From Escherichia coli O157:H7 (GTDB taxonomy: Bacteria > Pseudomonadota > Gammaproteobacteria > Enterobacterales > Enterobacteriaceae), in assembly GCF_013167455.1 (NCBI RefSeq), contig NZ_CP038328.1: DNA of 64,000 nt. One strand, 5' to 3'. Shown here one piece after another: positions 51,001-54,000 of this stretch. How positions within the stretch are numbered: the first letter of the stretch is position 1; each line of letters opens with the position of its first letter. The position numbers are program-made.

Positions 51001-54000
51001 GCTCTTTAACGCGTTCCTCCAGTTCGTAGACCCTGCATTGTTCTCTATCATCAATCAGATATAACCCAAGACATTCGCTTTCTACCCAACCGCCAAAATC
51101 ATGATCGTAATGCTCACATGAAAACTCACCGTCACCGTCCTTTGTTGGAATGGTGTAACTATCTAATGGGCCACCATATGTCGGCACATTTCCCAATGTT
51201 GGATGCTCAATCCACATGAAAAATGTACGTCCGGTTATTGGGCAAATATCTGGCCGCCATTGGTTACGAACAGCCTTGGTTTCGGATAATTTTTCAGCGT
51301 GTTGTTTTACTTCCTCAAGCTCAACACGCAGCTTTCCTACCGTTAGCGCAATCTCCTCGTTCTCCTGGTCGCGCTGTTTAATGTATTGCTGGTTTCTTTC
51401 CTGTTCATCCAGCAGTGCCAGCACAACCTGAGGTGTGGCTTTCATACGAAATGCCAGCAATTTTTGAGGCGTTGCTACTGTTTCAATTGCTACTGCCGCC
51501 TCACGCAGTGCCTGGTAATTAATTTTGCTCACTGGTTGCCTCCTTTGTGGATCTGCGCTGCGATGCACGAAAAAAAAGATTCCCGCGTATGACAGTTAAG
51601 AGCTGGTGCGAAAGCCGCGTTAAGAACGGCAGCATCACAGCCGTCATCGATATAGAGCGCAATTTTTTTCTCCAGGCGCGCTTTGGCTTCCTGCAACTGC
51701 ATACCCCGGCACGTACGCGGGATATACTCAGCAATTTGAGCGATAGATTTTTCGTTCTGTTTAAACATGATTCACCTCGACAGGCTTGATTGTGTCGATC
51801 AGCAGTCTGCGGCGAGTATTTTCTGCAAAGTGGCGGCGTCCGGTTTCTTTGTGGTAAAACTCGTTTTTGCCGACGACCCACATCCGCTCTGTCTGGTGAA
51901 GTTTTTTTACCTGCGGGCCGTCTTTGGTGATCACAATGCCGGTATGGGTTTTTACGATTGTCATGCCACTACCTCTTCGAATTTCAACTCCAATTGGTCA
52001 CCCCAGATTTCACATGATTCGGAACACGAACCAGTATCAAACCGCTTGGCCAGCACCATCGCTTGATACAAATTGCTGTAGTCGCTGTCGGCATACATCC
52101 TGGCAATCCCGTCAAGCGTCAGGTGACCACGGTACATAACGTCTTTACCTGTTCTGCGATGACCATCCCTGACGTGTTTGCCTGTAACCAGTTCATTAAA
52201 AACCCGCATCAGACCAGGTTCGTCTTTACATGCAAGCCCCAGCTTTTGCGTTGACTTTTTGATGCAGAAAACACAGTTCCCGAGGTGCTCCGGGATTTGC
52301 AAATCAAAAGGTTGTTTTCGCCACCACCGGATAACATCCGACTTATCAAAATCTGACAGTTCGGCAAGATACCGGACGCCCGGTTTCGGTTTCAGCCTAC
52401 GGGGTTCGTCTGCACGAATACCCAGCCACGTGATGTAGTTCCCTTGTCCGAAATGGTCATCGCAGTATTTTATGAAGGGGGTGAGTTTTAATCTGTCAGT
52501 GCAGAACGCGCCGCCGATGTATGGCGTGCCATATTTTTTTACCATGTCCATAAACGGTTTAAGCACCGGCATTCGCGTCTGAATATCCTTTGGTTCCCAT
52601 TCCGTATAACCATTTGGCTGCCCAAGCTCTGGATTTATATCGACCTGCAACACGGTTAGCGGAATATCCCAGAACTTCACAACCTCCCGAATAAACCGGT
52701 ACGTCAGCGGGTGTTCACATCCCGTATCCATGAGTATGTAATGAACGTTTTCACCAGCTTTTCTGCGTTGCTCCATAAGGTGGACGAGGTACGCCGATGT
52801 CCGACCGCCTGAAAAACTCACAACATGATGAGTGCTCATTTCTTCGTCTCGTTACGGGGAGGGGGTTAAATAGGTGGTAAGCTGGAATTGCCGGATGTTT
52901 ACCCGTGTCCGGGGTACGACCTCACGTTGCAGCGTACGAGAATGGACTATTGCTCAGTGTCGTTTGATGTCGGCTGAGGATATTCGCCTTGCTCTTGTAA
53001 CAGAGTTAGAAGAATGGAAAACCCCTCACGATGTGATGATTGATGAGTGTCGATCCCGGAATGATTGATGTTGTTAAATTCCAACATCGTGCTCCTGGCG
53101 ATAGCCTCAACGGTATTCCAGAATACTAATACATCTGTTTTCTGCTCTGTTTTATCAGCAACAGGAAGTTTGATATTTTGTTGAAATTTATTAATGCAAC
53201 CATTTTGAATATGTTCCTCGTGCTTTTCATTGTCATAAGCATACAGCCCGACAAAAACATCTCGCACGTTACGGGATATATTTTCCAGATTCGCCTTTGG
53301 TTCCTTTGTTAAATCAAGCACCGATAAATGGGCTTTAAGCGTATCCGCAGCTATTTTCTGAATATCCTCTGGTAAATCTTTAAATTGCATAGTATACCCT
53401 CCAAGAACTGTGTATTTTCTCGTGAAATATGAGCGATATGTCGTGACGTCCCTGTCACAGATTTCATCACACTGAGAACGTGCCGATGAAGGTTAAGATA
53501 TCTTCTTCTTCGAAACGCTCTTTCAGCAGGTCACGGAACTCTTTGGCAATTTCTTCTTCCGCAGCTTCAACACGCACGATACGTAGCACCAGAACAGGCT
53601 GTTCGCTTGTCAGAATGCTTAATCGCAGCGTGAATTCCCTGTTGCCCAGGCCCTCGTATGGGATGCATTCAAAGCGGAAAGTGGCAGGCATGATTTCTTT
53701 GCTTTTAGCCTCCACGGACTCCATGACTGAGCGGCTACCGCTGAAGTTTTGCTCTTCATATTCAGCACTGCGTTTTGCATCGATGGTAAGACGACGGACA
53801 GCAGAGATAGCCTGTTTGATGTCCAGCACATTACCGTCGCTGTCATAGGCTGTGAGGAAGTCGGCCCAGTCTTCCAGCCATTCAGCGAGAGACTTCTGGA
53901 GTTGTTTTTTGCCGTCAACGTCACGCAATGCGCGATATGGTGATGTGGCTTTCAGTTCCAGCAGTGCCTTGTTGTCAGCGTGTCCAGGTTGCTCCAGAGT

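Follow-up and report, generated by a model that had tools for sequence, protein, structure and literature searches.

What does a PAPS-reductase-like protein do in the early-left operon of an Escherichia coli O157:H7 prophage, and does it serve sulfate metabolism or the protection of phage DNA? The question was raised by a stretch of 64,000 nucleotides from contig NZ_CP038328.1 (assembly GCF_013167455.1), hereafter called the window, in which a sequence-only reading had placed a 292-aa protein with an SGGRTS motif in the PP-loop superfamily and had suggested a role in DNA modification or anti-restriction, with the caveat that its function was not established. In this study, the ORF was found to be intact, with a product of 292 aa:

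51961..52839, minus strand, ninC homologue encoding a 292-aa PP-loop / PAPS-reductase-like protein (ORF, homology and AF2 model)

This gene is an intact orthologue of ninC of phage lambda. The window protein shares 229 of 288 residues with lambda NinC in a gap-free BLASTP alignment (80% identity), and lambda NinC (Orf290, NP_040635; PHROG 424) has the same length and keeps every motif described below. The window protein matches PHROG 424 over aa 2-291 (E=2e-92) and Pfam PAPS_reduct above threshold (E=2.9e-8), proteins 100% identical to it occur in about 79 phage records, and the record of phage PA2 labels one of these NinC. The protein is thus a member of the catalogued lambda NinC family and not a new protein, and within the window ninC is a correctly recognised, ordinary accessory gene. 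NinC occurs in about 10% of complete E. coli genomes, and hundreds of phages, among them those of Vibrio and Salmonella, have relatives of it. ninC is dispensable: it is non-essential in lambda (PMC10695390), and some Stx2a phages keep it only as a remnant. NinC is without interactions in the lambda interactome (PMC3224144), the lambda literature describes it merely as non-essential and poorly understood, and a literature search on 'NinC' alone returned mostly irrelevant papers from chemistry and psychology. More than 40 years after lambda was sequenced, NinC is among the few genes of that phage without a function.

In lambda, ninC is part of the rightward nin region, with ninB and ninD as its neighbours, while the window gene lies in the leftward early operon, a placement already proposed by the sequence-only reading and borne out by gene order in the prophage, with recombination genes on one side and Ea22/DUF551-type accessory genes on the other. 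The synteny ninB-ninC-ninD is not kept around the window gene, both ninB and ninC are missing from the nin region of this prophage type, and DNA homology to ninC ends at the gene borders. In this Shiga-toxin prophage of the PA2/Oslovirus type, ninC has moved into the leftward early operon as a cassette of one gene. A promoter scan stayed at chance level, and the placement relative to pL rests on gene order. Its location in the leftward early operon predicts that ninC is expressed early upon induction or infection. It is flanked by two small ORFs:

51761..51964, minus strand, 67-aa ORF of PHROG 1226, whose ATG overlaps the ninC stop (ATGA); context
52947..53390, minus strand, 147-aa upstream ORF of PHROG 1363; context

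Both ORFs are found beside NinC only in the same phage type. Identification of the 67-aa ORF as NinD and of the 147-aa ORF as NinB was ruled out, as they are unrelated to NinD and NinB, respectively. In lambda, as in the window phage, the ninC stop overlaps the start of a small downstream ORF.

The family-invariant motifs SGGxxS, DTGxEHP, CTxxLK, RxDExxR, NCxxCxK and CxxxC are all present in the window protein and fit the invariant columns of an 84-sequence alignment:

52795..52812, minus strand, PP-loop S10-G11-G12-R13-T14-S15, pyrophosphate-binding motif by conservation
52708..52728, minus strand, D38-T39-G40-C41-E42-H43-P44, adenine-nucleotide motif common to PAPS reductases (DTGxxFPETY)
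52486..52503, minus strand, C113-T-D-R-L-K118 at the start of helix 112-130, with C113 and K118 invariant; aligns with PptA C92...K97
52396..52416, minus strand, R142-A-D144-E145-P-R-R148, charged motif with R142, D144, E145 and R148 invariant
52255..52281, minus strand, G187-N188-C189-V-F-C192-I-K-K195, CxxC motif with G187, N188, C189 and K195 invariant and C192 at least 90% conserved; aligns with PptA NNCVGCVK
52012..52026, minus strand, C272-S-E-S-C276, CxxxC pair in the C-terminal tail with C272 and C276 invariant; aligns with PptA C237/C241

The SGGRTS motif at residues 10-15 follows the strand formed by residues 4-8 and was counted as conforming to the SGGxD(S/T) pattern of the PP-loop superfamily, with Thr in place of the canonical Asp at position 5; together with the PAPS_reduct match it upholds the superfamily assignment made by the sequence-only reading. 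S10, G11, G12 and S15 are at least 90% conserved among the 84 family members. E42 is invariant and T39 and G40 nearly so, and this second motif aligns to DTGYLFPETY of CysH. These residues, together with C113, K118, R142, D144, E145, R148, N188, C189, C192, K195, C272 and C276, do not vary or are conserved in at least 90% of the 84 diverse members, and three motifs are present in nearly all of 105 representatives, a pattern which indicates that the catalytic features of NinC are under selection. The R142-R148 motif is likely to bind phosphate or substrate. The AF2 model of the window protein (pLDDT 92.3) has the Rossmann-like alpha/beta/alpha nucleotide-binding fold, while pLDDT falls below 50 for residues 271-274 and 283-292, and C272xxxC276 lies on this low-confidence, disordered tail. 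On sequence grounds, the window protein falls in a phage-specific clade on the branch of the PP-loop ATP pyrophosphatases that contains PAPS reductases, DndC and SspD; what defines the clade is an intact PP-loop combined with five cysteines, C113, C189xxC192 and C272xxxC276, all of them invariant.

Taken at face value, the database name 'phosphoadenosine phosphosulfate reductase' and the PHROG category 'auxiliary metabolic gene' would make NinC a PAPS/APS reductase which boosts host sulfate assimilation during infection, and the structure comparison proposed by the sequence-only reading did return CysH and APS reductase as the best solved-structure matches. However, the TM-score to CysH (PDB 1sur, 2o8v, 2goy, 6vpu) is about 0.4, with the core alone in common; the sequence alignment between NinC and CysH is limited to about 70 N-terminal residues, and the C-terminal half of NinC is unlike that of the assimilatory enzymes. 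The C-terminal catalytic Cys of CysH lies in an ECGLH-type motif, whereas neither ECG nor CGLH was found in the window protein, the tail of which reads GSCSESCEIWG. Conversely, NinC has an intact SGG PP-loop, which is missing from the aligned CysH sequences. The CysH equivalog models of NCBIfam scored the protein far below their cut-offs (22.6 vs 154 for NF002537; 16.1 vs 165.1 for TIGR00434), and CysH orthology, an outcome that the sequence-only reading had said would count against its suggestion, was rejected. With NinC domains also fused to DNA methyltransferases, as described below, a role in sulfate assimilation seems very improbable.

Related loci were retrieved using a 20-sequence family alignment, and fusions of NinC-type domains with methyltransferases were found to be recurrent, in both orders and with two m6A families. 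The PF05869 Dam domain is C-terminal in P0121, P0127, P0158, P0088 and P0109 and N-terminal in P0125 and P0126, a PF02086 D12 domain is the partner in P0128 and L034, and L030 is a triple C5-MTase/NinC/D12-MTase fusion. Of 48 dereplicated viral loci, 6 are fused to Dam or D12; dam lies directly upstream in another 3 and no more than 1.3 kb away in 1, so that loci with Dam/D12 fused or nearby, mostly close NinC relatives, make up only about a fifth. The remaining neighbours are replication, recombination or packaging genes. The window protein itself ends at aa 292 without a methyltransferase domain, and neither a Dam or D12 methyltransferase nor a second NinC copy is present within the window.

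A cassette containing a homologue defeats Dnd in Vibrio: two genes of Vibrio phage 44E38.1, moved together into a sensitive phage, overcome host Dnd (bioRxiv 10.1101/2021.05.05.442762), and a July 2026 preprint still cites this cassette as the sole functional evidence. One of the two, p0018 (P0088, PAPS-Dam; Piel et al.), is 56% identical over 95% of the window protein and has the same PP-loop and the same five cysteines. However, p0018 ends in a PF05869 Dam domain and was assayed jointly with p0019 (DUF6475), while the window protein stands alone, and neither the window nor the set of 48 dereplicated NinC-family viral loci contains a relative of p0019. Because two genes and a fused Dam domain were tested, and p0019 has no relative here, the share of the PAPS domain itself in the anti-Dnd phenotype is unproven. 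Together, the methyltransferase fusions and the anti-Dnd cassette lend support to DNA modification or anti-restriction as suggested by the sequence-only reading, and its caveat on function still holds; the identity with NinC, the recurrent fusions and the links to Dnd evasion and IscS had not been part of it.

The link to IscS comes from PDB 21fy, in which PptA of Vibrio phage vB_VhaP_VH-5 was deposited with a chain identical to E. coli IscS; literature searches on PptA and on IscS-phage counter-defence found no publication describing this entry. Homology between the NinC and PptA families extends over the full length (hhalign probability 99.1%, E=5e-19, 231 columns); the alignment pairs each of the five cysteines (C113/C92, C189+C192/C173+C176, C272+C276/C237+C241), and the EHP, C-T-x-x-L-K, N-C-x-x-C-x-K and C-terminal CxxxC motifs align as well. 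While these features are shared, PptA is shorter (250 aa) and only about 21% identical to NinC, its gene adjoins the RNA polymerase gene of a T7-like phage, and the PP-loop of its family is degenerate, with S-C-G-A-x-S where NinC has S-G-G-R-T-S. Given this degenerate PP-loop (SCGAxS), PptA may be a binder or inhibitor and not an enzyme.

In DNA phosphorothioation systems, sulfur is inserted by the PAPS-reductase-domain proteins DndC, SspD and BrxP, PP-loop ATP pyrophosphatases whose Fe-S-binding cysteines are supplied by IscS or DndA (PMC10853773, PMC11662687). Among PADLOC profiles, SspD matches NinC with E=2.4e-14, although aa 4-148 align to profile positions 1-121 of 277 only, and the DndC and BrxP profiles match at about 6e-4; for all three the match is limited to the N-terminal half. 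Assignment of NinC as DndC itself was rejected (TIGR03183, 15.5 bits vs a cut-off of 290.4). DndC binds a [4Fe-4S] cluster on conserved cysteines, and NinC has five invariant cysteines that might serve the same end. In addition, NinC is phage-encoded, whereas DndC, SspD and BrxP belong to host defence islands. Four phosphorothioate (PT) systems, dnd, ssp, tdp and brx, have been listed, and in every established pathway the PAPS-domain protein depends on a neighbouring NTPase partner, DndD, SspC or BrxC (PMC12914056). While DndD/E, SspB/C and BrxC partners adjoin DndC, SspD and BrxP, they are missing beside NinC: no DndD-, SspC- or BrxC-like NTPase and no DndD/DndE partners were found in the window operon or, by Pfam scan, among 20 tightly coupled NinC-family neighbours, the other flanking ORFs having been checked for Dam/D12 only, and adjacent sspB/sspC is absent from the window operon and the sampled loci. 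When flanking ORFs, p0019 relatives and adjacent NTPases were examined, no conserved partner gene of ninC was found.

Taking these lines together, we tentatively favour the proposal that NinC is an early, dispensable, IscS-coupled sulfur enzyme which acts on DNA as a counter-defence. In this scheme, the PP-loop and the DTGxEHP site would bind ATP and adenylate a substrate oxygen, C113 and C189xxC192 would carry an Fe-S cluster or serve as a thiol relay beside the ATP site, and the flexible C272xxxC276 tail would collect persulfide sulfur from the host cysteine desulfurase IscS. The sulfur would then pass to DNA, most probably that of the phage during its replication; in another version, NinC might divert the sulfur relay from the host phosphorothioation machinery. 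Either way, the outcome would be escape from phosphorothioate-based (Dnd/Ssp-type) or other modification-reading defences. That NinC itself would bind IscS and transfer sulfur, that DNA would be its substrate, and the nature of its product and of the defence targeted in E. coli are all inferred here. With the fusions, the anti-Dnd cassette and the homologue deposited with IscS, the label 'PAPS reductase' gives way to a specific hypothesis open to bench tests; should it be correct, the ability of lambdoid and Stx phages to deal with phosphorothioate-based immunity would be explained, and the 'auxiliary metabolic gene' label of the databases would be misleading. The Thr for Asp in the PP-loop, the lack of an adjacent NTPase, the lack of Dam/D12 in the window and its presence at only about a fifth of the dereplicated loci, the degenerate PP-loop of PptA and the empty result for NinC in the lambda interactome do not fit this proposal easily.

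The same evidence may be read differently. NinC might be a decoy or inhibitor which imitates DndC/SspD and uses its cysteine tail to dock on IscS, leaving DNA unmodified and blocking the flow of sulfur to host phosphorothioation, and perhaps to tRNA thiolation and Fe-S assembly, so that PT-dependent immunity is disabled or the host is reprogrammed. That PptA, a homologue with a degenerate PP-loop, was deposited with IscS, that NinC is without the partner NTPase needed for PT synthesis, and that it behaves as a self-contained single-gene cassette would all suit such a role. Yet across the NinC clade the PP-loop, DTGxEHP and RxDExxR do not vary, which speaks for a catalytic role over simple binding; a protein that did nothing but bind IscS would hardly be expected in fusions with as many as two DNA methyltransferase domains; and halting new PT synthesis alone would not shield unmodified phage DNA from DndFGH. 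We consider this explanation unlikely, though still to be reckoned with.

If NinC is catalytic, sulfur need not be what it adds. It could take part in non-sulfur DNA hypermodification with adenine methyltransferases, adenylating a base or backbone oxygen to which an amine or amino acid is added, while the methyltransferase gives DNA binding and base flipping; but the five invariant cysteines and the IscS-associated homologue point to sulfur, and no amidotransferase or ligand-supplying partner is encoded nearby, which makes this version rather improbable. Nor need DNA be the target, as a thiolase or modifier of RNA or tRNA of the TtcA/TtuA/NcsA/TilS type could alter host or phage tRNAs, for example in escape from anticodon nucleases or in the tuning of translation. 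Against this, the recurrent fusion partners are DNA methyltransferases and the neighbours DNA replication and recombination genes, no RNA-binding domain (THUMP or PUA, for example) is recognisable in NinC, and the NCBIfam TilS model scores 14.8 vs a cut-off of 606; a tRNA substrate is quite improbable.

A stronger form of the sulfur-enzyme proposal, which we regard as speculative and rather unlikely, is that NinC is a minimal, NTPase-independent DNA sulfur-modification enzyme, needing only host IscS and ATP, which would mark phage DNA with a phosphorothioate or thio-base as the DNA replicates, with the adenine methyltransferase as the targeting module in fused forms. If so, lambda and many Stx phages would bear a sulfur mark that has so far escaped detection, and a further route of DNA sulfur modification, the first to be phage-borne, would stand beside dnd, ssp, tdp and brx. 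In the window, one m6A methyltransferase of another family is encoded in the leftward operon of ninC, about 5 kb downstream of it, and is a possible functional companion of NinC:

46759..47385, minus strand, MT-A70 family m6A DNA methyltransferase (Pfam MT-A70 E=1.3e-22; PGAP annotation of a related prophage)

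The gene under study encodes a protein of the NinC family of phage lambda. The sequence-only reading had described a PP-loop protein with an SGGRTS motif, and both the open reading frame (292 codons from an ATG on the minus strand, window 51961-52839) and the motif (residues 10-15, window 52795-52812) are genuine and far above chance, the N-terminus of the product reading MSTHHVVSFSGGRTSAY. The PAPS-reductase-like class also held: Pfam PAPS_reduct scored 34.4 bits against a gathering threshold of 22.5 (E=2.9e-8), the match being limited to residues 5-72, and PHROG 424 matched across the entire protein (E=2e-92). 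While the class was right, the identity as lambda NinC had been missed. Direct comparison with lambda NinC (NP_040635) gave 229/288 identities (80%) with no gaps, the Salmonella phage Oslo homologue, annotated 'similar to NinC [lambda]', is 79% identical, and the gene is already named NinC in the phage PA2 record; sequence and motifs agree with this family, synteny does not. Identical (100%) products occur in about 79 phage records, mostly those of Stx2a-converting phages and of Oslovirus phages of the PA2 type (vB_EcoP_phi346, for example), and a nucleotide search of 5,426 complete E. coli genomes found ninC in 551. NinC is thus already known and widely annotated, its function is not; as a genome feature it is ordinary, and an old orphan gene gains concrete experiments.

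HMMER, run exhaustively against 1.84 billion representatives, recovered 106 clusters at E<1e-30 and 787 at E<1e-10. Across 84 diverse family members, conservation is complete or nearly so at S10, G11, G12 and S15 of the PP-loop, T39, G40, E42, T46 and F49 of the DTGxEHPxTYxF nucleotide motif common to PAPS reductases, and K102, C113, K118, G140, R142, D144, E145, R148, Y157, K166, N188, C189, C192, K195, K199, R237, C272 and C276; the motifs recur in almost every one of 105 representatives. The AlphaFold2 model from the 84-sequence alignment (mean pLDDT 92.3, pTM 0.88) is confident except for the last ~20 residues, places C272xxxC276 on a disordered tail, and predicts a PP-loop enzyme by fold. 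The top Foldseek PDB matches were CysH and APS reductase, with TM only ~0.4, and the C-terminal half had no solved counterpart in the structure libraries searched. In many family members (P0124, P0130, P0139, P0140, P0146 and others) the profile match is split in two by an insert of 50-70 residues that follows residue ~150 and separates the PP-loop core from the cysteine-rich half.

Orthology to CysH, which the sequence-only reading had set against a phage-specific role, was ruled out: scores fell far below the family cut-offs and the ECGLH-type tail is absent. While aligned CysH sequences have SSSFG or SFSG, NinC retains the SGG loop, and for all its shared nucleotide motif a genuine PAPS reductase seems very improbable. 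Among defence-system profiles SspD was closest (E=2.4e-14, N-terminal half), followed by DndC and BrxP. By analogy NinC may work most like DndC/SspD, although it falls below the DndC cut-off and lacks the partner genes of both. In E. coli-type Dnd systems, IscS feeds DndC, which requires its [4Fe-4S] cysteines (PMC10853773; PMC11662687).

A link to IscS also came from the PDB. When the family alignment was used as a profile against PDB sequences, it matched 21fy chain C, 'PptA' (E=6e-8), with the CTxxLK and NCxxCxK motifs inside the match; Vibrio phage vB_VhaP_VH-5 encodes a protein identical to PptA, and a search of the PDB with IscS showed that 21fy also holds a chain identical to E. coli IscS. 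Profile-profile comparison of the two families (probability 99.1%, E=5e-19, 231 columns) aligned all five cysteines, which identifies the window protein as a remote full-length PptA homologue. The PptA family has a degenerate PP-loop, S-C-G-A-x-S. Literature searches found no paper on 21fy, and PptA in the complex may be a sulfur acceptor or an inhibitor.

Functional evidence comes from Vibrio phage 44E38.1, two genes of which, p0018 and p0019, both particular to that phage, were transferred to a sensitive phage, and the recombinant newly infected a Dnd-carrying host (Piel et al., bioRxiv 10.1101/2021.05.05.442762). As late as July 2026, a preprint names this result as the sole functional evidence for phage PAPS reductases. 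The p0018 product is a PAPS-Dam fusion (P0088 in our set), 56% identical to the window protein; however, the phenotype came with p0019, which is absent here.

Such fusions recur in the family. PF05869 Dam is fused C-terminal to the NinC domain in P0121, P0127, P0158, P0088 and P0109 and N-terminal in P0125 and P0126, PF02086 D12, a different m6A family, is fused in P0128 and in viral locus L034, and L030:2396-5695 encodes a 1,099-aa C5-cytosine MTase - NinC - D12 m6A MTase triple fusion. Dam or D12 fusions occurred in 6 of 48 dereplicated viral loci, dam lay directly upstream in overlapping frames in three more entries of that survey (3/48) and within 1.3 kb in 1/48. The remaining neighbours in tight coupling are NinB, NinG, lambda P, DnaB-like helicase, PolA, primases, terminases, C5 MTase and a second PAPS_reduct gene; at L079:1202-2739 two PAPS_reduct-family genes stand in tandem. 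That fusion to adenine methyltransferases arose independently, in both orders and with two unrelated folds, argues for NinC acting on DNA or alongside DNA-acting enzymes.

By analogy with DndC/SspD and Fe-S-dependent PP-loop thiolases, we tentatively propose, with confidence a little short of even, that NinC is a counter-defence enzyme coupled to IscS and directed at DNA. The PP-loop and DTGxEHP site would bind ATP, with adenylation of a substrate oxygen; C113 and C189xxC192 would bind an Fe-S cluster or serve as a relay; and the mobile C272xxxC276 tail would fetch persulfide from host IscS. Sulfur might then be delivered to DNA, or the relay diverted from host phosphorothioation machinery, so that the phage escapes immunity that is phosphorothioation-based or reads other modifications. 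The main difficulties, which keep our confidence at this level, are that NinC lacks the adjoining partner NTPase that every established phosphorothioation pathway requires (PMC12914056), that the Vibrio phenotype involved a second gene, and that PptA, the protein seen with IscS, has no canonical PP-loop. The last point and the inhibitor reading of 21fy would favour a decoy or inhibitor of IscS, which we consider unlikely beside the retained PP-loop of NinC. The fusions could also be those of an enzyme that hypermodifies DNA without sulfur, in partnership with adenine methyltransferases, which is quite unlikely given the IscS link, and an RNA or tRNA modifier, set against the same DNA-directed partners, is more doubtful still. 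For the counter-defence enzyme, the methyltransferase fusions and the connection to IscS make the hypothesis more precise and do not prove function.

ninC is dispensable in lambda (PMC10695390), and the two-hybrid map of lambda recorded no interaction of NinC (PMC3224144). Some Stx2a-converting phages (LC727874, LC727858, LC727852) keep only codons 239-292, the last 54, in the equivalent place; the gene has thus been lost by deletion in close relatives.

Gene order was taken from a closely related wrbA-integrated prophage as annotated in RefSeq; its gene set is also present in the window. The order runs int, xis ... MT-A70 methyltransferase ... Ant, DUF551, Ea22-like, two small ORFs, NinC homologue, YfdQ/DUF2303 ... 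exonuclease, RecT, GamL, Kil ... PstI-type endonuclease, methylase, cI-like repressor, then cro ... helicase, DUF1367, NinG, NinH, Q, stx. Strand and synteny place ninC in the leftward early operon, with these members in the window:

46759-47385, minus strand, MT-A70 family N6-adenine methyltransferase (Pfam E=1.3e-22)
50314-50871, minus strand, 185-aa accessory protein (PHROG 9263 and PHROG 631, E=1e-123)
53467-54288, minus strand, YfdQ/DUF2303 protein, between exo and NinC
54352-54699, minus strand, PHROG 204 protein, between exo and NinC
54775-55362, minus strand, PHROG 743 'SSB' protein, between exo and NinC

The MT-A70 gene, near the int-proximal end of the operon and ~5 kb from ninC rather than adjacent, represents the third m6A methyltransferase family found in the vicinity of some NinC gene. 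The 185-aa gene is a conserved, uncharacterised accessory gene with no match in Pfam, NCBIfam or PADLOC, and the last three genes (53467-55362) accompany the Red-like recombination module as a conserved, uncharacterised trio.

By RefSeq gene order, the nin region of this phage type has neither ninB nor ninC. DNA similarity to lambda covers only the ninC body (625-1444 of a 1,951-nt query, 75% identity), and the flanking 147-aa and 67-aa ORFs, which adjoin NinC solely in the same phage type, are unrelated to NinB and NinD; ninC therefore travelled as a cassette of one gene. The stop codon of ninC and the start of the next ORF overlap (ATGA), and the 147-aa ORF, between NinC and YfdQ, is left without annotation by PGAP in the related prophage.

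Further elements of the window are:

59296-60249, minus strand, PstI/BsuBI-type restriction endonuclease
60246-61715, minus strand, Eco57I-domain methylase
61810-62523, minus strand, cI-like LexA-family repressor
59277-59256, strong terminator-like hairpin after the R-M pair
43123-44316, minus strand, tyrosine integrase with Arm-DNA-binding domain
44637-45881, plus strand, tyrosine integrase with Arm-DNA-binding domain
13664-14982 and 26902-28211, two near-identical copies (99.8-100%) of a ~1.31-kb element

The R-M pair (59296-61715) lies directly downstream of the repressor on the same strand, and this layout with the hairpin suggests that lysogens transcribe the pair together with the repressor. 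The hairpin is followed by the best promoter-like sites on the minus strand, which is compatible with a pL at that place, though such sites are as numerous as chance predicts. The back-to-back integrases suggest that a second integrative element adjoins the end of the prophage. The ~1.31-kb element, with ORFs of 891 and 327 nt, also occurs in the early-left region of phage phi346 (L001 12282-13599), and by its layout looks like a putative IS3-family insertion sequence.
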